Origin: a virus
Virus record (IMG/VR): IMGVR_UViG_3300029121_000001
DNA: 64,000 nt
Reading direction: 5' to 3' (one strand)
Made by a program: the position numbers and the translations under genes. This document shows, piece after piece, positions 4,372 through 43,813 of the stretch. The notes beneath the pieces were generated by a model. The model searched no databases and was not told where the DNA came from. It saw only the letters and a list, made by a program, of their open reading frames with translations. Positions within the stretch are counted from its first letter, which is position 1. Each line of letters opens with the position of its first letter.

Positions 4372-5589
4372 ATGAGTATGGGAAAAGCATTCATTAGTAC
4401 ATTCACATATGATTGTGAATTAGCATTTAATTCTCAAGATGGTACATCTGAAGATATATTTAAACAGTGCGTAAGATATATTATTGTCAATCATGACTAT
4501 ATGAAAAATATGATGCCACTTATATATGTGAATGTGAATTTGAAACCTTCTCTATATAATAAAATGGTACCTGAGCAAGGTAAGAGTAAAGTATATCTTA
4601 AATTGTATTGTACTAGAAATAAAGGTTCTACGTCATCTACAGCTAAGAAAGTTATATATGGAGAATTCGATTATTATATGGCAGATGATCCTAATTCGTA
4701 TAAGGAATTGGATACTATCAATGAAGATCAGGGTACATCTTATAAGGTTTGTCAATTGGCACTATTTTCTCTTGATCTTCAGAAGAAAAATCAAAAGAGC
4801 TTTGGCGGAGTTATGAAAGGAAAAACTCCTCAAGATTTAGTAAAAGAATCATTAAAAGATATGAATAATCTTGTAATGCAGCCTTTTGATAATAATAGTA
4901 GTCTTGGTACATTTGTTTGCCCTAATTTAAGTTCTGTTGCAAAATTCATCGGGTATTTGAATAATAAAGCATCTTTCTATAAAGGAAATTATATGTTCTA
5001 TATGGACTTCGAGAAAACATATTTACGAAGTTACGATGGATCATATATTGATGCTGGAGATGGAGATCATAAAAATATTGCAATAGATGTTAGAGATCTT
5101 ACTCAGTATAAAGGATTAGCTTCTGGTATTGTAGAAGATCCTGATCAAGATGCGTATATTATTTATGTAAATGGATCTGATTGTACTATTAGTGTAGATA
5201 GAACTTCTAGTTCCATTGTTGGCAACATTAGCTCTGTTAACGTAGAGCAAGGAACAAAACTGCAAGCTGATGTAGTTAATACTTCTAATATTACTAATAT
5301 TAGTGATACTGGTTCTTCTATCATTACTGTTAGTGAAGATAAAAATGCCGCAAGTAATATCAAGACTAAGATTGCTGAAAATGCTAATACTCTTATCTTT
5401 AGTAAAATAGATATGGACAGTAGAATCTTTACTCCAAATAAACAATATACTCTATCCAATTATGAAGATAATCCAAAGTATACTGGCGTATATTATCTGA
5501 TAAAGAAATATGAGATCTATCTACGAAGTGGAGATCATATGAATTGTCAGATGACTAATACATTTAAAAAGACTGCAGATTTTGTATAA
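4372..5589 (+). CDS. Hypothetical protein (405 aa)
   Basis: Long ORF with AAGGAG just upstream. It is followed 17 nt later by the next same-strand gene. No motif recognised. Confidence 0.65.
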   Translation: MSMGKAFISTFTYDCELAFNSQDGTSEDIFKQCVRYIIVNHDYMKNMMPLIYVNVNLKPSLYNKMVPEQGKSKVYLKLYCTRNKGSTSSTAKKVIYGEFDYYMADDPNSYKELDTINEDQGTSYKVCQLALFSLDLQKKNQKSFGGVMKGKTPQDLVKESLKDMNNLVMQPFDNNSSLGTFVCPNLSSVAKFIGYLNNKASFYKGNYMFYMDFEKTYLRSYDGSYIDAGDGDHKNIAIDVRDLTQYKGLASGIVEDPDQDAYIIYVNGSDCTISVDRTSSSIVGNISSVNVEQGTKLQADVVNTSNITNISDTGSSIITVSEDKNAASNIKTKIAENANTLIFSKIDMDSRIFTPNKQYTLSNYEDNPKYTGVYYLIKKYEIYLRSGDHMNCQMTNTFKKTADFV

Positions 5590-16677: not shown

Positions 16678-16878
16678 ATGAAAATCATCAAACATGGTCA
16701 ATCAAAAGAAATATCATTTAAATGTGCTTTTTGTGCATGCGAATGGATATCTAATCCTGGAGAAACTAAACACTATATCTGTAGCATGAATGGAAAGAAA
16801 TTTGATATTTATTCTATGGAATGCCCTGAGTGTGGTAGAGATGTTTCAGAAACTATCGAAAAAGAAACTCCAGAATAA
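16678..16878 (+). CDS. Small zinc-ribbon protein (66 aa)
   Basis: 'CAFCAC' ... 'CPECG'. GGAGG RBS. Confidence 0.5.
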   Translation: MKIIKHGQSKEISFKCAFCACEWISNPGETKHYICSMNGKKFDIYSMECPECGRDVSETIEKETPE

Positions 16879-36215: not shown

Positions 36216-36261
36216 TTTGCACGTAAACTTTATAATAATTATTTAAAGAAAGGATTGGTTG

Positions 36262-38379
36262 ATGGCCATGCTTCTTGATAGTAAATATACCATTCTTCCT
36301 AATCTTAGGTTTTCTCTGACCTACGATACGGGAATGTCTAAGTCTATTATCGTAAAGTCTGGTGATAAAATTGATTGCTCTTATAAACAGAATGGTGTAA
36401 TTAATTCTATCACTGGTATGGTATCTAAGATTGGTGTTAATTATAATTCCTCTCTCGGTGCTTTTGGTTCTAATGCATATATGCAGGTTGATGGATCTGC
36501 AGAATATGCAGGTAAGGTAGTATATATTCAGCCTAATGATGTGCTTGATATCGATATTATCTCTACTTCTGATACTATTAGTAATCCTGTTTGTAGTGTC
36601 GATAATGAAGATCAGCGCATTAGATTGATTAGAGAAAACGAAGCTGGAGTTTTCCAGTATAGTCTTGATGGACTTACTTGGAATACTGCTACTGGATCTC
36701 AGGGTATGTCTGCATATGAATGTGCAGTTGCTATGGGATATCAGGGAACTGAGGCTGAATGGCTAGAGAGTCTTAAGGGTGATAAGGGAGATCCCGGTGA
36801 ATTTGAAATTTACTGTGTCTTTGATTCTATCGAAGAAGCAGAAAGAAAGAAGAATACTGTTCCTCGTGGAAAGTTTGTTGCTGTTCTAGGAACTCCTTGT
36901 GCTACACTATATATCAGAACCAGTGATACCACTACCAGTAGCTGTCCTTGTGGCTGTGGTAAGAATATTGTAGTTAATTCTAACACGACTATCACTGGAT
37001 ATCAATATCTTGGTCCTATGACTGTTGGTGCAAAGGGAGATCCCGGTAAGCCTGGTTCAAAGGGAGATCCCGGCAAAGATGGTAAATCTGCATATGAATA
37101 TGCTGTAGATTATGGATTTACTGGAACAGAAGAAGACTTTGCTAAGCAAATGTGTGATGGTAGTATCAAGGTTACCAATTTCTTCATGGGCCAAAATCCT
37201 GACCTTCTGAATACTGTTATTGGGCCTATTGATCTGAGAATCTTTGGCTATACAGATACTAAGACCCTTAGAAGTGTTAAGCTGAAGAAAATTGATATTT
37301 CTTCTCCTTCTGAGATTGAAGATCAATCTCTGATTTTTGCAGATGCTGTTACTCTTCGTGCTGTTCCCACTAAGACAGAGGCCGCTAAGCCTAATCTTAC
37401 CATTAAAGGTAATAAGTTTGTCACCGACTGCATTATGGAACGTGATGGAGAGATCGGTGTTTTCCGTAGAGTTGAGCACATTGATTCCTATAATGGTGAA
37501 ACTATTCTAGGTGATTGGATCTCCTCTACTGGTGAGCTTGATCTTGGTGCAGAAGTTCAGTTTACTACTCTTGGTGAATTTGAGCCTTTTGATAAGAGAA
37601 CTCAGAGCCAGTATAAGAAACTCCATACTTATGATAGAGAAACCGAAATTAAGTTGGATGATAAGAATGCTTGGCTATCTATCTCTTACCCTGTAGATAT
37701 TGCTACTTTTATTACTGGTATGGCATCTACTCAGATTCAAGAATATCTTGAAGAGCATACTACTGAGCTAATTGGTCCTGCTGTTGAGAAGGTTGTTAAT
37801 GAGAAGATCAATACCATTAATCAGGAAATAACCAATATTAACAATTCTCTTGGCGATAAACAAGAAAAGCTTCAGGCTGGAGATAATATAACCATTAAAG
37901 GCAATGTAATTAGTGCATCTGCTGCTGGTGAAACAACAGAAGAAATTACTGTTACTAAGGCCTTTGGTGCTCTTGAAGTTGGAACAGTAATTCCTACAGG
38001 AACGTCATTTACAGACTTTCTGAAGATGTCTATTGCTCCTCCTGCTCCTCCTGCTAGTAAATTTGTTTATTTTGGAACTCCTGATACTGTTCCTACCAAT
38101 ATTGAAGGTTTTACGAGTCAATCTATTGAAGATACTATACTTTTGAAGGATGGTGTATTCTTTAGATATACTGCAGATGATAAACATCTTGCATTTGCAT
38201 ATAAGCAGAGTATTGGTGAACTTCTGTCTATTAAAGATCCTAATGGGTTTGAACAGATGGATGGATGGTCAATGGCTACATATACAAATCCTGATACTAA
38301 TATTGCTTATTATATCTGGTATACTAATGATCCTGTTACAGTTTCTAGATTTAAGGTTACATTCCTATTTACTGACTGA
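36262..38379 (+). CDS. Tail fibre protein with collagen-like G-X-Y stretches
   Basis: 'GMSAYECAVAMGYQGTEAEWLESLKGDKGDPGE' and 'GAKGDPGKPGSKGDPGKDGKSAYEYAVDYGFTGTEEDF' are motifs typical of tail fibres of low-GC Gram-positive phages. Confidence 0.7.
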   Translation: MAMLLDSKYTILPNLRFSLTYDTGMSKSIIVKSGDKIDCSYKQNGVINSITGMVSKIGVNYNSSLGAFGSNAYMQVDGSAEYAGKVVYIQPNDVLDIDIISTSDTISNPVCSVDNEDQRIRLIRENEAGVFQYSLDGLTWNTATGSQGMSAYECAVAMGYQGTEAEWLESLKGDKGDPGEFEIYCVFDSIEEAERKKNTVPRGKFVAVLGTPCATLYIRTSDTTTSSCPCGCGKNIVVNSNTTITGYQYLGPMTVGAKGDPGKPGSKGDPGKDGKSAYEYAVDYGFTGTEEDFAKQMCDGSIKVTNFFMGQNPDLLNTVIGPIDLRIFGYTDTKTLRSVKLKKIDISSPSEIEDQSLIFADAVTLRAVPTKTEAAKPNLTIKGNKFVTDCIMERDGEIGVFRRVEHIDSYNGETILGDWISSTGELDLGAEVQFTTLGEFEPFDKRTQSQYKKLHTYDRETEIKLDDKNAWLSISYPVDIATFITGMASTQIQEYLEEHTTELIGPAVEKVVNEKINTINQEITNINNSLGDKQEKLQAGDNITIKGNVISASAAGETTEEITVTKAFGALEVGTVIPTGTSFTDFLKMSIAPPAPPASKFVYFGTPDTVPTNIEGFTSQSIEDTILLKDGVFFRYTADDKHLAFAYKQSIGELLSIKDPNGFEQMDGWSMATYTNPDTNIAYYIWYTNDPVTVSRFKVTFLFTD

Positions 38380-39240: not shown

Positions 39241-40626
39241 ATGGCTGTTATTAAGACTACTTATGATAATGCCAACACCCTGAAGAAGATTACAGTCGGT
39301 GCTGAAGTCTACTTCGTTAAGGATGCTGACCTGCGTAAGATTGTTGAAGGTTTCCACGATGCCGTCTATAAGGACGTCGCTGTTGAGCTGACCGAAGATG
39401 GTGTTGCTCTGCCTACTGAGGGTGCAGTTGTTAAGTATATTAAGGAGAAGGTTGCATCTCTGGAAGGTGCTATGCACTTCCGTGGTGTCATCACTCGTGC
39501 TGAAGAGGGCACAGATGATCTGACTGCTATTGCTGCTGTTGTTACCGATCCCAAGTCTGGTGACGTTGTTGTTATGAAGGATAACTCTAAGGAGTATATC
39601 TATAACGGCACTGCTTGGGAGGAGCTGGGTGACCAGACTACTCACCTGACTGTTGCTACTGCAGCTGCTACTTATGTTGCAAAGACCACTACCATTGCTG
39701 GTATTGATCTACAGGATAACATTACTGCTGAGGAGCTGGAAGGTCCTACTGCTCTGAATCTGAAGGCTCTGTCCCATAAGGATACTGCTTCTGGTTCTGT
39801 TGAGGTCTTTGATAAGATCGATGACCTGACTGTTGCTAAGTCTGGCGAGTATACTCTGGCAGGTACTACTGTTGCAGTTCCTAAGACTTATTCTGCTATG
39901 GATGTTACCGCAGCAGGTAGTGTTACTGTTGATCAGACTATTGATGTGGCTGCTACTTATGAGAAGACTTCTGGTGTTACCATTGCTGCTACTGCTGCCG
40001 ATGAGACTCATACAGCAAACTATACTCCTGCTGGTAAGGTTGCTCTGCCTGCTCTGACTGCTAGTGTTGAGCTGAAGACCACTGATGTTGCAACGGTTAC
40101 CGATAAGGGTACCGCTTACTCTATGACTGATGGTAAGGTCGAGAAGGCTGCTGATACCACTGCATCTTTCGTTCAGAAGGGTGTTAAGTTTAGTGTTGAT
40201 GCAGAAGATGAGTCTCTGACCCTGGACTACACTACTGCTGCCGCTGATACCGCATTCTATGCTGCTGCTGTCACTGTTGCTGGTGCTGTTACCTATACTG
40301 CTCCGAAGCTGTCTGGTGCTCTGCCTACCTTCGGTACTTCTGCAGTTGCTACTGCAACTGGTGCTGTTGCTAAGGCAGCATACAATGGTGAGGCTACGTT
40401 TACTGGTACTGGTGCTGTTCTTGGTGCTACCGTTGCTACTGAGACTACTGCTGCTACTGTCACTCAGCCTGTCTTCTCTGCTACCTTTGCTGGTACGAAG
40501 AAGTCTGTCACTCCCACTGTTGCTACTACCGAGGATGCTCAGGCTCCGAATGGTACCATCACTGTGGAGACCACTACTGTTACCCCGACCGTTTCCAAGA
40601 AGACTGCTACTGTCACTGTCAAGTAA
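39241..40626 (+). CDS. Abundant Thr/Ala/Val-rich fibrous structural protein (fibre or decoration)
   Basis: 'LPTEGAVVKYIKEKV' fibre-type N-terminal motif, then ~350 aa of T/A/V-rich repeats. Codon usage is biased (Leu mostly CTG), unlike the neighbours. Confidence 0.55.
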   Translation: MAVIKTTYDNANTLKKITVGAEVYFVKDADLRKIVEGFHDAVYKDVAVELTEDGVALPTEGAVVKYIKEKVASLEGAMHFRGVITRAEEGTDDLTAIAAVVTDPKSGDVVVMKDNSKEYIYNGTAWEELGDQTTHLTVATAAATYVAKTTTIAGIDLQDNITAEELEGPTALNLKALSHKDTASGSVEVFDKIDDLTVAKSGEYTLAGTTVAVPKTYSAMDVTAAGSVTVDQTIDVAATYEKTSGVTIAATAADETHTANYTPAGKVALPALTASVELKTTDVATVTDKGTAYSMTDGKVEKAADTTASFVQKGVKFSVDAEDESLTLDYTTAAADTAFYAAAVTVAGAVTYTAPKLSGALPTFGTSAVATATGAVAKAAYNGEATFTGTGAVLGATVATETTAATVTQPVFSATFAGTKKSVTPTVATTEDAQAPNGTITVETTTVTPTVSKKTATVTVK

Positions 40627-40672
40627 TTTTAACAGTTTTATTTGGATACCTGTTGCATAATTAGTTAATATG

Positions 40673-40700
40673 TACCCTCATCTCTCACGAGGTGAGGGTA
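40673..40700 (+). terminator. Intrinsic terminator
   Basis: TACCCTCA / TGAGGGTA stem followed by TTTTATTATTT. Confidence 0.7.
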
Positions 40701-40843
40701 TTTTATTATTTAATTAAAAATGCTAAATTATGATTAATAATCATAGTACTTTACAAAACATTTTAGTAAATAATAAAATGCTAGTAGTAATATACTAGTG
40801 ATATTATTATATGCTATATAATATCAATAGGAGGATATTTATA

Positions 40844-42202
40844 ATGGCTGATATTAAACAGATTAAAGTTGAAGGCGTATCTTATGATATCAACTCTAAG
40901 TATATCCAAGATGGTTCTGGAAATGGTAAAACTTGGTCTGATATTACTGCTCTGGTCAATGCTGGTGTTCAGCTGGTTACTGACGCTGCTCGTAAGGAAG
41001 CAGCTGCAGATGGTGGCGTTGGAACACCTGCTACTACAGCTGCTGCTGGTACCATGGGTAAGATCTACATGGTAGCTGGCGATGGTGCTATGTCTGGCTC
41101 TTATGTTGAGTTCATTACTGTTGATAAGGGCACTGGTAAAGATGTCACCACTCGTTTTGTCTGGGAAAAGATTGGTACTACTGAGACTGACCTGAGCGAC
41201 TATGCTAAGAAGAAGAATATTACCCTGTCTGGTACTGCAGCTACTGCTGGTGCAACAGCTACTGGTTCTGCTGGTGCAGGTGATGCATCTAATACTGGTG
41301 ATGCTGGTGCAATCACTGCCACCATTACTATTACAGATACTGCAGGTGCACCTTCTGCTACTGGTTCCGCAGGTGCTGGCGTTGCAGCTAATACTGGTGC
41401 TGCAGGAGCTGCTACCATTACTTCTACTTCTGCAGGTGCACATACTCATAGTGTCACTATCGCTGCTCATAGTCATACTGTAAATGTAGCTACTGCTACT
41501 ATTACACCGATTACTAGCGTTGACGATACTACAGGTTCTGCTGGTGCACATACTCATAGTGTCACTATCGCTGCCCATAGTCATACTGTAAATGTAGCTA
41601 CTGGTTCTACTTCTGTTGTTACTGGTGTCACCGCTACCGGTTCTGCTGGTGGTCATACTCATAGCATTACTCCGTCTACTGGTTCTGCAGCATCTCCTGC
41701 TAGTGTTACGGATGGAGTTCTGACTCTTGGAACTATGACTGTTGTTACTGGTGTCACCGCTACCGGTTCTGCAGGTGCACATACTCATAGCATTACTCCG
41801 ACAAAGGCAACTGTTACCTATGTTACTGGGGCTACTCTGTCCGCTGCTGGTGATGCTACTATCAATACTACTTCTGCAGGTGCACATACTCATAGTGTTA
41901 CCTCTTCTGCACCTACTACTCCGATCACTTACGTCACTGGTGCTACTCTGTCCGCTGCTGGTGCTGCTACTATCAATACTACTTCTGCAGGTGGTCATAG
42001 CCATAGTGTTACTATTGCTGCTCATAGCCATAGCTATACTGCACCTCAGGCTCATACCCATACTATTACTCCGACCACTAACACCTTCACTTATGATCTG
42101 GCTGTTGCTGCTCACAACCATACCTATACCAAGCCGACTGCTCATACTCATACCATTGCACAGCATACTCATAGTGTTTCTGTCAAGGGTAATAACTATT
42201 GA
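40844..42202 (+). CDS. Tail fibre / adhesin with ~13 HxH 'His boxes'
   Basis: GGAGG RBS before ATG 40844. Repeated 'SAG(A/G)H(T/S)HS(V/I)T' and 'AAHSHTV' units. The N-terminus 'MADIKQIKVEG...' parallels that of 39241..40626. Confidence 0.7.
   Translation: MADIKQIKVEGVSYDINSKYIQDGSGNGKTWSDITALVNAGVQLVTDAARKEAAADGGVGTPATTAAAGTMGKIYMVAGDGAMSGSYVEFITVDKGTGKDVTTRFVWEKIGTTETDLSDYAKKKNITLSGTAATAGATATGSAGAGDASNTGDAGAITATITITDTAGAPSATGSAGAGVAANTGAAGAATITSTSAGAHTHSVTIAAHSHTVNVATATITPITSVDDTTGSAGAHTHSVTIAAHSHTVNVATGSTSVVTGVTATGSAGGHTHSITPSTGSAASPASVTDGVLTLGTMTVVTGVTATGSAGAHTHSITPTKATVTYVTGATLSAAGDATINTTSAGAHTHSVTSSAPTTPITYVTGATLSAAGAATINTTSAGGHSHSVTIAAHSHSYTAPQAHTHTITPTTNTFTYDLAVAAHNHTYTKPTAHTHTIAQHTHSVSVKGNNY
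41427..42010 (+). repeat. Three pairs of ~60-70-nt near-identical direct repeats inside the HxH fibre gene
   Basis: For example, GGTGCACATACTCATAGTGTCACTATCGCTGC(T/C)CATAGTCATACTGTAAATGTAGCTACTG occurs twice (~41434 and ~41543). Two further pairs lie at ~41615/41741 and ~41822/41935. Confidence 0.7.
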
Positions 42203-42239: not shown

Positions 42240-42266
42240 GGGGAAGGAGCTCTCTGCTCCTTCCCC
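42240..42266 (+). terminator. Intrinsic terminator
   Basis: GGGGAAGGAGC / GCTCCTTCCCC stem followed by TTTGTTTT. Confidence 0.7.
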
Positions 42267-42294: not shown

Positions 42295-42468
42295 ATGCGA
42301 AATGTAGTATCTTTTTACTGCCCTGATTGCAATGAAAACTTTGAAGTTCCTGTAACTCAATTTGGAGAAGACTATATTAAGACTTTTGGAAAATGCAGAT
42401 GCGTTTGCCCACATTGTGGAAATAATGTAGAAAGTGATAGAATCATTGAAGTATCTAGTAAGGAGTAA
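42295..42468 (+). CDS. Cys-rich mini-protein 1 (57 aa; CxxC ... CxCxCxxC)
   Basis: AGGAGGA RBS. 'MRNVVSFYCPDCNENFEVP...GKCRCVCPHCGNN'. It falls below the ORF-track length cutoff. Confidence 0.5.
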   Translation: MRNVVSFYCPDCNENFEVPVTQFGEDYIKTFGKCRCVCPHCGNNVESDRIIEVSSKE

Positions 42469-42473
42469 TCTTC

Positions 42474-42653
42474 ATGAATGTAGTAGCTTTTAAATGTGAT
42501 GATTGTGGTGTAGTCACAGAAATTCCTTTTAATAAAGCTATACAAGTAATATTGAATTCAAGAGGATATGTACAATGTTTATGCATCTGCTGTGGTAAAG
42601 AATTAACCAGTAATTTGATTGCAAAAGAGGGAGAAATTAAAGATGACAGATAA
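42474..42653 (+). CDS. Cys-rich mini-protein 2 (59 aa), paralog of mini-protein 1
   Basis: AAGGAG RBS 8 nt upstream. 'MNVVAFKCDDCGVVTEIP...VQCLCICCGKE'. It overlaps the glycosyltransferase start by 11 nt. Confidence 0.5.
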   Translation: MNVVAFKCDDCGVVTEIPFNKAIQVILNSRGYVQCLCICCGKELTSNLIAKEGEIKDDR

Positions 42654-43773
42654 AAAGATTTGCGTATATGCTATTTGTAAGAATGAATCTAAATTTATTT
42701 CTCAGTGGCTAGACAATATGTCTGAAGCAGACTATATTGTTGTATTGGATACAGGTTCTACAGACGGTACATTTGAACTACTTAAAGAAGATCCTAGAGT
42801 AACTAGAGTAGAACAAAAAATAATTAATCCTTGGAGATTTGATGTTGCTCGCAATGAATCTATGAAATTGATTCCTAAAGATGCAGAAATCTTTGTATGC
42901 ACAGATTTTGATGAATTATTTGAAAATGGATGGTGTCAAGTTCTTAGAGATAATTGGGAAGATGCAGATACAAGATGTCATTATACATATGCATGGTCTC
43001 ATAACATAGATGGTGAACCTACAGATGTATTTATGTATGATAAAATTCATACAAAAGGATATCATTGGAAATTTCCTGTGCATGAAGTTCTTGTAAAAGA
43101 TGATCCTGATTCAGAAGAATTTGTTTTAGATGCTGGAGAAAATATTTATCTTCATCATTTTCCTGATACAAGTAAACCTAGAAGCTCTTATCTTAATCTA
43201 TTGAAACTAGCAGTTAAAGAAAATCCTACAGAATCTCATGTAAGTTCTCTTCTTGCTAGAGAATACATTCTAAGAGATGATATCAAAAATGCTATTAAAC
43301 AATATCTTGCTACTCTTAAATATGAAGATATTAATACTCCTGAAAAGAATGGTATTAAACTTGATTGCTTTGGACATCTTGGAGATTGCTATTTTATGCA
43401 AGCAGAATATGATGAAGCAATTAAATGGTATAATGAATGGATTGCTATAGATCCTACTTATAGAGAACCTTATTTTTGTATTGCTGATATTTATATAGCT
43501 AAGAAACTATATTCAGTGGCTATTGGATATATAGATATGGGTATTAAATTTGGTGTACGTAAATTTGATTGGCTTGAAAGATTCGACAATTGGATTACTA
43601 AAGCTGAAGATATGCTTGCTATTTGCTATTATTATATGCAGAATATTGATCTTGCTTATGATAATATCGTAAAAGCATATGATCATAACAAATCTGATAG
43701 CAGAATTATTGAAAATTATAAAACAATTCTATTTGCTAGAGAAACAGGCATTTATTATCCTACAGTAATTTAA
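42643..43773 (+). CDS. Family-2 (GT-A) glycosyltransferase with C-terminal TPR domain, SunS-like architecture
   Basis: 'ICVYAICKNESKFI...IVVLDTGSTDGT...FDVARNES...FVCTDFDE' (GT2 signature with DxD), then TPR-like 'AIKQYLATL...EAIKWYNEWIAIDPTYREPYF'. GAGGGAG RBS before ATG 42643. Confidence 0.8.
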   Translation: MTDKKICVYAICKNESKFISQWLDNMSEADYIVVLDTGSTDGTFELLKEDPRVTRVEQKIINPWRFDVARNESMKLIPKDAEIFVCTDFDELFENGWCQVLRDNWEDADTRCHYTYAWSHNIDGEPTDVFMYDKIHTKGYHWKFPVHEVLVKDDPDSEEFVLDAGENIYLHHFPDTSKPRSSYLNLLKLAVKENPTESHVSSLLAREYILRDDIKNAIKQYLATLKYEDINTPEKNGIKLDCFGHLGDCYFMQAEYDEAIKWYNEWIAIDPTYREPYFCIADIYIAKKLYSVAIGYIDMGIKFGVRKFDWLERFDNWITKAEDMLAICYYYMQNIDLAYDNIVKAYDHNKSDSRIIENYKTILFARETGIYYPTVI

Positions 43774-43785
43774 TTTTAATAAAAT

Positions 43786-43813
43786 TCCAGAGATGAAGAT
43801 ACTCATCTCTGGA
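43786..43813 (+). terminator. Intrinsic terminator
   Basis: TCCAGAGATGA / TCATCTCTGGA stem followed by TTT. Confidence 0.65.

Follow-up and report, generated by a model that had tools for sequence, protein, structure and literature searches.

The gene considered here encodes a glycosyltransferase (GT) and lies among the fibre and tail genes of a virus, IMG/VR record IMGVR_UViG_3300029121_000001, of which the full stretch of 64,000 nucleotides that was analysed is called the window throughout (L and P numbers denote, respectively, the related viral or bacterial loci and the homologous proteins with which it was compared). Its product joins an N-terminal catalytic domain of the GT-A fold to C-terminal tetratricopeptide repeats (TPRs), an architecture for which there are precedents in bacteria. 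SgtA of Clostridioides difficile (C. difficile), the O-GlcNAc transferase of the spore exosporium, is a protein of 358 amino acids (aa), with the GT-A domain in residues 1-260 followed by four TPRs, whose gene is beside bclA3; in vitro, with UDP-GlcNAc and Mn2+, it adds beta-O-GlcNAc to threonine (and serine) of peptides from the collagen region of BclA3 (PMC7157674). A GT domain and TPRs are also combined in GmaR of Listeria, which is both the flagellin O-GlcNAc transferase and the anti-repressor of MogR (PMC9638930). In the S-glycosyltransferases SunS and ThuS (PDB 7MSN, 7MSK, 7MSP), GT-A is followed by a helical repeat domain. As for virions, work on mycobacteriophages described glycans at the C-termini of the capsid and tail-tube subunits of these actinophages (Freeman et al. 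2023, as cited in PMC12619734).

The GT of the window resembles SgtA in size (376 against 358 aa), in its N-terminal GT-A domain followed by about four TPRs, in its apparent solubility and in the position of its gene beside that of a Thr-rich fibrous surface protein. It differs from SgtA in being encoded by a phage, in being preceded by two open reading frames (ORFs) for putative zinc ribbons, called mini1 and mini2 below, and in its neighbouring fibres, which are Thr/Ala/Ser/His-rich and tail-fibre-like rather than made of Gly-Pro-Thr (GPT) collagen repeats. With GmaR it shares the order of domains, and GmaR acts on a filament-forming protein; however, GmaR has 637 aa, with a linker and anti-repressor domains, whereas the window GT ends after the TPRs at residue 376. 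SunS and ThuS are the best matches among solved structures (TM 0.64), but identity is only 14-18% and the resemblance is at the level of the fold. Unlike a glycocin locus, the window has no leader-bearing helical-hairpin peptide, the adjacent small proteins being predicted zinc ribbons, and no peptidase-ABC exporter, thiol-disulfide oxidoreductase or immunity gene stands beside the GT gene, which is flanked instead by genes for fibres, a virion structural protein, the sheath and the tube. The wall-teichoic-acid glycosyltransferases TarS, TarP and RmlT, whose GT-A domain precedes trimerisation or carbohydrate-binding domains, are still farther away, since the C-terminal domain of the window GT is a TPR domain and their match is ten orders weaker than that of SunS and ThuS. 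In mycobacteriophages, as may be the case here, phage-encoded glycosyltransferases decorate virion proteins; there, however, the glycans are on capsid and tube, whereas in the window, from a jumbo myovirus of the gut, tail fibres are the candidate acceptors and the enzyme belongs to the GT-A plus TPR type. Finally, the phages of PHROG 13126 (Pseudomonas PaBG and Lu11, and Erwinia and Dickeya jumbo phages) encode proteins that match over the full length, with 27-33% identity by tblastn, but the PaBG and Erwinia Y3 genes are located near those for DNA ligase and prohead protease and are not accompanied by mini-proteins.

By analogy with these systems, we lean towards the view that the GT, as an SgtA-like protein O-glycosyltransferase in a phage, modifies the Thr/Ser-rich fibres whose genes precede its own. 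The fold, the intact catalytic motifs, the distribution of the family and the recurring neighbourhoods with Thr-rich fibres or collagen-like proteins, on which this view is built, are described below, followed by the mini-proteins and by the alternative explanations.

The Glycosyltransferase and Its Family

The GT gene opens with an ATG at 42643 and its stop codon ends at 43773. Its product of 376 aa has the motifs DTGSTDGT and TDFDE and is divided into two domains:

42643..43182, plus strand: GT residues 1-180, GT-A (GT2) catalytic domain, from Pfam, DTGSTD and the DxD motif TDFDE
43189..43746, plus strand: GT residues 183-368, all-helical TPR domain, from Pfam TPR families and the helices of the model

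In Pfam, TPR_2 (E 2.3e-8) and several other TPR families match the C-terminal part, while the N-terminal part matches Glycos_transf_2 and Glyco_tranf_2_4, the latter with E 3.6e-6 and 27.8 bits against a cutoff of 27.5. The residues DTGSTD, D36, D41, D88-x-D90, E91, H147 and E148 are invariant in 35 homologues. The AlphaFold model (pLDDT 95, pTM 0.89) has a GT-A fold up to about residue 180 and helical repeats from 183 to 368. When it was compared with the PDB by Foldseek, SunS and ThuS came first and over the full length, with E from 3e-16 to 4e-14 and TM of 0.57-0.65 normalised to the query, which upholds the SunS-like architecture recognized in the original prediction, made from the sequence without database searches. 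Clustering with teichoic-acid enzymes, which that prediction had named as an outcome that would speak against it, was not found, and the GT groups with protein glycosyltransferases: TarS, TarP and RmlT align by Foldseek with the GT-A core alone, with E of about 1e-6 to 1e-7 and TM of 0.31-0.35. A sequence profile of the GT, searched against the PDB, found the GT domain of GmaR as the best match (E 3.5e-4, residues 9-152) and then ThuS (E 9e-4); these two emerged only with the profile, and a single-sequence phmmer search of the same database returned essentially TPR matches. The protein is predicted to be soluble, having no hydrophobic or membrane segment (maximum hydropathy 1.16).

The compact three-gene unit had been thought to match no described phage system, a view that no longer holds for its main component. 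The GT belongs to PHROG 13126, with a full-length match (E 1.1e-81) of residues 5-361 to profile positions 2-353 of 394, and its homologues number more than 7000 among 8000 scored candidates. About 475 stretches in IMG/VR encode relatives, and tblastn finds proteins 27-41% identical in PaBG, Lu11, Erwinia and Dickeya jumbo phages, an actinophage and a phage contig from human faeces. The fold recurs in BFVD in uncultured Caudovirales and in several giant viruses. Judged from its sequence relatives, the GT is therefore no orphan, being widespread in phages and gut Firmicutes. The names carried by the family ('beta-1,4-glycosyltransferase', 'LOS glucosyltransferase', 'moron') are derived from homology.

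Some relatives present variations of their own. Reassigned stop codons occur in GTs 50-57% identical to that of the window, namely in-frame TAG at glutamine columns in L004 (6001-7155) and in-frame TGA at invariant tryptophan columns in L009 (6001-7113) and L022 (5001-6131); the window GT reads through in the standard code. Tandem copies of the gene are found in L029 (3902-6137), L030 (3854-6113) and L202 (5055-7216), a gene of the GT1 family lies directly 3' of the GT in L009 (7205-8356), and a SAM-methyltransferase domain is fused to the N-terminus in L054 (4509-6059) and in the 548-aa protein P0014. These duplications, the GT1 neighbour and the methyltransferase fusions are a hint that other phages build glycans in several steps or methylate them.

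Fibre Genes and Collagen-Like Genes Beside the Glycosyltransferase

Two fibre genes precede the GT and its accompanying mini-proteins in the window:

39241..40626, plus strand: fibA, 461-aa Thr/Ala-rich fibre-like protein, candidate acceptor (T 18%, A 17%, no Cys)
40844..42202, plus strand: fibB, 452-aa Thr/Ser/Ala/Gly/His-rich fibre, candidate acceptor immediately preceding the unit (T 20%, S 9%, H 6%)

They alone are rich in Thr/Ser/Ala/Gly among the 45 window ORFs that reach 150 aa. FibB, whose sequence includes the segment TGSAGAHTHSVTIAAHSHTVNVAT, has a weak match to PHROG tail fibres and contains 13 HxH motifs, arranged in repeats such as AGAHTHSVTIAAHSHTVNVAT. Comparable C-termini rich in HxH are found in fibres of relatives, with 15 motifs in L020 (2686-4242) and 12 in L021 (1619-3607), and also in L033 (3479-4903). 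At the tip of the long tail fibre of T4, HxH repeats coordinate metal ions along the axis of the trimer, and by analogy the HxH fibres are probably metal-stapled trimers.

The arrangement recurs in other phages. A Thr/Ser-rich fibre gene, often with an HxH-repeat end, directly precedes the GT gene at 43-80% identity of the GT (L002, L009, L011, L020, L023, L024 and L033), and HxH fibres homologous to those of the window are upstream of the GT in L009, L020, L021, L023 and L033, directly so except in L021. The fibre genes of L021 and L004 lie farther upstream, at 1.4-1.7 kb, and in L021 an unassigned ORF of 392 aa comes in between. Thr/Ser-rich ORFs of 200 aa or more occur no farther than 1.5 kb from the GT in 18 of 51 dereplicated viral loci; they make up 18 of the 94 ORFs near the gene against 11 of the 116 farther away in the same loci. 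The enrichment is real but modest, and it is concentrated in relatives at least 43% identical.

Among bacteria, gut Clostridia, Christensenellales, Oscillospiraceae and small-genome 'Bacilli' commonly have full-length homologues with 37-42% identity. Of 80 such bacterial GT loci, 39 contain a collagen-like (GPT)n ORF (bacterial loci L125-L201; examples are L199 4031-4990, L188 6125-7090 and L146 4113-4994), and at 23 of them it is no more than 500 nt from the GT, mostly just upstream and on the same strand. These neighbours match Pfam Collagen with E from 1e-25 to 1e-36, one of them has a BclA_C domain, and in L193 the GT follows spoIIGA-sigE. The arrangement of a GT with a collagen-like or BclA-type gene is that of sgtA and bclA3 in C. 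difficile, and these sequences suggest that such a pair for glycosylating the spore surface is widespread in gut Firmicutes and small-genome 'Bacilli'. Glycosylation of the adjacent fibres, one of the two functions proposed in the original prediction, has in this way gained comparative support, both from the fibre-then-GT order that extends to about 43% identity and from the collagen-like neighbours in bacteria, while the fibre as the acceptor is what we infer from these associations.

FibA, fibB and fibres of relatives have in common an N-terminal module of about 130 aa (39241-39660 in fibA and 40844-41263 in fibB) with the motifs IKxIxVxGxxYD, SGxYxEF and WEKIGTTxxDLSxY, which is also present in small ORFs of 113 aa in relatives (L004 4356-4697). 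The module was found in 31 IMG/VR loci (L093-L123), mostly on fibres that are not Thr-rich; the GT as a constant partner of module-bearing fibres was ruled out, 26 of these 31 loci having no GT. FibA is syntenic in L001, L002 and L011-13. A further fibre-like protein of 706 aa, encoded at 36259-38379, matches several PHROG tail-fibre families and contains two short collagen-like GXY stretches (KGDKGDPG; GAKGDPGKPGSKGDPGKDGKS).

The Mini-Proteins

Between fibB and the GT are two small ORFs:

42295..42468, plus strand: mini1, 57 aa, predicted C4 zinc ribbon and paralogue of mini2, with an AGGAGG ribosome-binding site (RBS) and six Cys (CxxC...CxCxCxxC)
42474..42653, plus strand: mini2, 59 aa, predicted C4 zinc ribbon, with an AAGGAG RBS and six Cys (CxxC...CxCxCC)

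Both are found as they had been read from the sequence alone, including their RBSs, their six Cys each and the final 11 nt of mini2, which overlap the start of the GT (ATG 42643). They are 33% identical over 48 aa without gaps, with a pairwise E of 6e-9. The minis are real proteins under purifying selection, with dN/dS of about 0.1: among related phage contigs (Nei-Gojobori), it is 0.07-0.17 for mini1 and, in most pairs, 0.09-0.19 for mini2, and with 0.08-0.26 for the GT in the same comparison they are at least as constrained as the enzyme.

The Cys residues are conserved to different degrees. In mini2 homologues C8, C11, C35, C37 and C40 are invariant and C39 varies (G, S, R, H); in mini1 homologues the Cys equivalent to C35 of mini2 is Tyr in P0144, and the position of the fifth Cys shifts between the paralogues. 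In full-length members, invariance thus extends to the two CxxC knuckles, C8, C11, C37 and C40 in mini2 and C9, C12, C38 and C41 in mini1, and since these are the only universal Cys, a classical C4 zinc ribbon is predicted. The AlphaFold model of mini2 (pLDDT 96) has a beta-beta-alpha-beta-beta-beta order with beta-hairpins. Foldseek found no significant fold match for this model in the PDB, the best being a HypA zinc domain with E 0.28, and the zinc-ribbon matches of the minis in Pfam and NCBIfam are weak and below cutoff, HypA being at a Pfam E of 0.03. Inspection of hydropathy and sequence revealed in neither protein a hydrophobic segment, a leader peptide or a secretion signal; both open directly with a conserved M(R/K)xVV(A/S)F-x-C core, in line with the earlier view that they have no double-glycine leader and are not classical glycocins.

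In contrast with the GT, the mini-proteins have a very narrow distribution. In word-indexed searches of 5.8e9 proteins, mini2 is represented by 19 clusters, 18 of them at 78% identity or above and one a truncated variant of 40 aa, and mini1 by just six, all at least 84% identical. The exhaustive profile search of 1.84e9 cluster representatives retrieved only eight proteins, of which five are members of the clade (the mini2 and mini1 representatives and three truncated mini2 variants) and the others are a Cys-repeat protein of 1041 aa and two marginal proteins of 95 aa with two domains. The word-indexed, exhaustive profile and Foldseek searches gave nothing informative on remote homologues beyond the clade. 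The two marginal proteins, P0149 and P0150 (94-95 aa; E 3e-5 to 5e-5), are the sole relatives outside it, and each repeats the motif C-x2-C ... GYLH-x-LC-x2-CGKD in its two domains. A 'DNA-directed RNA polymerase' label attached to one mini2 member was rejected as a generic zinc-ribbon artefact. Among 76 IMG/VR GT loci that were scanned, a Cys-rich ORF with the zinc-ribbon pattern precedes the GT only when identity of the GT reaches 74%; above that threshold mini2 stands ahead of the GT in every full relative, and every clade member retains the overlap between the mini2 stop and the GT start. Minis are missing from more than 99% of the GT family. No tblastn match to mini1 or mini2 was obtained at the bacterial GT loci, and in L033, whose GT is about 70% identical over the 148 residues on the contig, the GT comes directly after the fibre gene. 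Fusions of a zinc ribbon with the GT, of the Rosetta-stone type, were sought among the family and not found, the N-terminal extensions being SAM-methyltransferase domains.

Even within the clade the minis are dispensable. In L001, the closest relative (GT 95% identical), mini1 is a remnant after a deletion of about 111 nt, and it is cleanly absent from L002; because L092, whose GT is close to that of L002 (dS 0.17), retains both minis, mini1 is ancestral and was lost at least twice. In L204 there is no mini1, and its 40-aa mini2 has lost the second knuckle but stays in frame and still overlaps the start of the GT; L205 has a mini1 with an in-frame deletion of 8 aa. Furthermore, mini1 is 95-96% identical at the DNA level to that of L011-13 (4653-4826), where mini2 is 83% and the GT 77% identical; this excess over its neighbours indicates a recent recombinational exchange, of a short tract or exchangeable cassette. 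Conservation of the trio in related phages, which the original prediction had proposed as a check, is therefore divided: the GT keeps its synteny with a fibre down to about 43% identity, while the minis stop at 74% and mini1 has gone from some of the phages that remain. The mini zinc-ribbon ORFs are a small orphan family and a clade-specific addition.

Organization of the Window and Transcription Signals

The window, with a GC content of 33%, comes from a jumbo myovirus of the gut. Between 36 and 50 kb the order is fibre-like genes, the mini1-mini2-GT unit, a virion structural protein, the tail sheath and the tail tube, with a further virion structural protein beyond the tube on the opposite strand. 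The products of the genes 3' of the GT match families of virion structural proteins, tail sheaths and tail tubes. Related contigs, of 248-271 kb, come from human-gut and other metagenomes; a megablast search with 6 kb around the unit gave no match to GenBank phages, and the relatives of this phage are metagenomic only. A separate ORF of 66 aa at 16678-16878 (plus strand) also has a CxxC...CxxC pattern (MKIIKHGQSKEISFKCAFCACEW...CPECGRD), with no obvious kinship to mini1 or mini2.

Three hairpins punctuate the region:

40672..40701, plus strand: terminator-like hairpin after fibA, 13-pair stem then T-run
42240..42266, plus strand: terminator hairpin between fibB and mini1, 11-pair stem with 8 GC pairs, then T-run
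43786..43813, plus strand: terminator-like hairpin after the GT, closing the unit, 11-12-pair stem then T-run

The second and the third bracket the mini1-mini2-GT block, so that the placement of the unit after a fibre terminator and between fibre and tail genes, already noticed in the sequence, stands. The hairpin at 42240-42266 (GGGGAAGGAGCTCTCTGCTCCTTCCCC) is identical in the window, L001, L002 and L011-13, whereas identity in the coding DNA on either side drops to 77-84%. Between the hairpin and the ATG of mini1 there are just 28 nt, too few for a sigma-70-type promoter ahead of that gene, and a scan for sigma-70 promoters found sites no more frequently than in shuffled sequence, so that no promoter is claimed for the unit. 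Because of the short gap and of this lack of excess, the simplest reading is that the unit is transcribed by read-through from the fibre gene.

Proposed Mechanism and Alternative Explanations

In the mechanism that we propose, the GT would be a soluble, cytoplasmic, metal-dependent GT-A enzyme of the SgtA/GmaR/SunS type, whose TPR domain would recognize the substrate, and it would O-glycosylate threonine and serine of fibB, and perhaps of fibA, while the tail is being assembled or earlier. Transcripts reading through the fibre terminator would yield it late and in small amounts. The minis, tandem-duplicated zinc ribbons specific to the clade, would be translated just ahead of the GT and coupled to it; they would be accessory, the GT family working without them, and not substrates of the glycocin kind. 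O-glycosylation of the fibres would be the function of the GT that the comparisons support best, while the acceptor, the O-linkage, the identity of the sugar, the timing of expression and any part played by the minis are deduced from context.

Several observations weigh against this mechanism. The link to SgtA is drawn from architecture, size and neighbourhood, and the phage fibres are not collagen-like GPT repeats. Thr/Ser-rich ORFs are only about twice as frequent near the GT as elsewhere in the same loci, and many GTs of the family are not beside fibres: besides PaBG and Erwinia Y3, with the neighbours given above and no minis, L025 and L027-L029 have no fibres adjoining the gene. Conversely, there are Thr-rich fibres with the same N-terminal module but no GT (L112 and L114). 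Finally, tight coupling and strong constraint could mean that the minis matter more to the GT than is assumed here. The context of the gene in PaBG, in Erwinia Y3 and in cyanophage-like contigs is uninformative for function.

Among the alternatives, some concern the minis and one the target of the enzyme. The minis may have a function apart from glycosylation, in fibre assembly or in loading the HxH fibres with metal, or as a small regulator or anti-defence protein that shares the transcript, and we regard this as a possibility, although on balance an unlikely one. The slot just after a phage fibre gene often holds an assembly chaperone, and the minis are immediately downstream of the HxH-rich fibB; they have a weak, non-significant similarity to zinc domains such as that of HypA, mini1 behaves as an exchangeable cassette, and the window contains another, unrelated zinc-ribbon mini-ORF (16678-16878). 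However, fibres equally rich in HxH occur in relatives without minis (L020, L021 and L033), all similarity to known zinc-ribbon proteins is below significance, and the overlap that has been conserved is with the GT and not with the fibre.

That same overlap, kept in all clade members, is the first argument for a different role, in which the minis would be zinc-ribbon adaptor or regulatory subunits that sit on the TPR or the GT domain and determine which acceptor the enzyme takes or how active it is; together they would be a virion-glycosylation module of two or three components. Purifying selection on the minis as strong as or stronger than that on the GT, their inclusion in a block closed by two terminators and the presence of mini2 in every full relative with a GT at least 74% identical are in agreement with such a role. 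We nevertheless consider it rather unlikely, since orthologous GTs 43-70% identical, with the same fibre-then-GT synteny, have no mini (L004, L009, L016-L024 and L033), as is the case at about 75 other viral loci and, by tblastn, at the bacterial ones; outside the clade the exhaustive profile search adds only the two marginal 95-aa proteins, mini1 was lost at least twice, the 40-aa mini2 of one lineage has kept the overlap with the GT without its second Cys knuckle, and overlapping genes are frequent where phage genomes are packed. That the minis serve as adaptors or regulators is possible but not required by the GT family, and an independent role, be it in regulation, metal handling or the assembly of fibres, is equally possible.

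The target of the enzyme could also be elsewhere, in the host (wall teichoic acid, LPS or LOS, S-layer, flagellin or pilin), with superinfection exclusion as the outcome, or in the phage DNA, the position beside the fibres being incidental. Phage GTs often serve the modification of the host or of DNA (PMC12619734), database names of the family such as 'beta-1,4-glycosyltransferase' and 'LOS glucosyltransferase' go in this direction, and the gene is away from fibres in PaBG-like phages, in Erwinia phages and in several metagenomic ones. The names, however, are homology-derived, and the similarity to TarS, TarP and RmlT is weak (E about 1e-6, compared with 1e-16 for SunS and ThuS) and confined to the GT-A core. 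TPR domains normally bind proteins, the GT is predicted to be soluble, with no membrane segment, its gene belongs to the late structural cluster and has no recognisable promoter of its own, and its bacterial homologues associate with Thr-rich collagen-like proteins. We therefore hold a host or DNA target to be improbable to much the same degree as an adaptor role.

Less likely still is that the trio is a self-contained virion-glycosylation module in which the minis, as specificity or adaptor subunits and one per fibre, dock the Thr-rich fibres onto the TPR domain of the GT.

The remaining idea, raised in the original prediction, that the minis are themselves the substrates, S- or O-glycosylated by a SunS-like GT into a phage glycocin-like product, draws on their small size, their many Cys, their position beside the GT and the S-glycosyltransferases SunS and ThuS as the closest solved structures, but it is essentially excluded, and S-glycosylation of the minis in particular is most improbable, given that the zinc-ribbon CxxC...CxxC Cys alone are universal (the fifth shifts or is Tyr in P0144, and C39 of mini2 varies), that the confident model is a beta-rich zinc ribbon and not a disulfide-stapled helical hairpin, that leader, hydrophobic segment and secretion signal are all missing, that the neighbours are fibre and tail genes and not a transporter, thiol-disulfide oxidoreductase or immunity gene, that over 99% of the GT family does without such peptides and that the minis decay in close relatives.

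Implications for Phages of the Gut

Many gut jumbo phages have the GT gene immediately behind genes for Thr-rich tail fibres, and if SgtA-like O-glycosylation of these fibres is correct, enzyme and fibre would be a simple enzyme-acceptor pair, to which the Cys-rich minis are probably peripheral. We know of no prior description of a GT-A plus TPR enzyme in a phage tail-fibre context. Glycosylation of phage particles has been documented so far mainly for the capsids and tail tubes of mycobacteriophages. Should the trio be a module after all, gut jumbo phages would coat their fibres with glycans, for example as a shield against proteases or antibodies or for sticking to mucus. More generally, the comparisons suggest that a large and widely distributed phage family of GT-A plus TPR enzymes corresponds, among viruses, to the bacterial enzymes by which Thr-rich fibres of the spore surface are O-glycosylated; if the tail fibres are indeed glycosylated, this would affect host recognition, shielding from immunity and proteases, and mucus adherence of phages that are abundant in the human gut.

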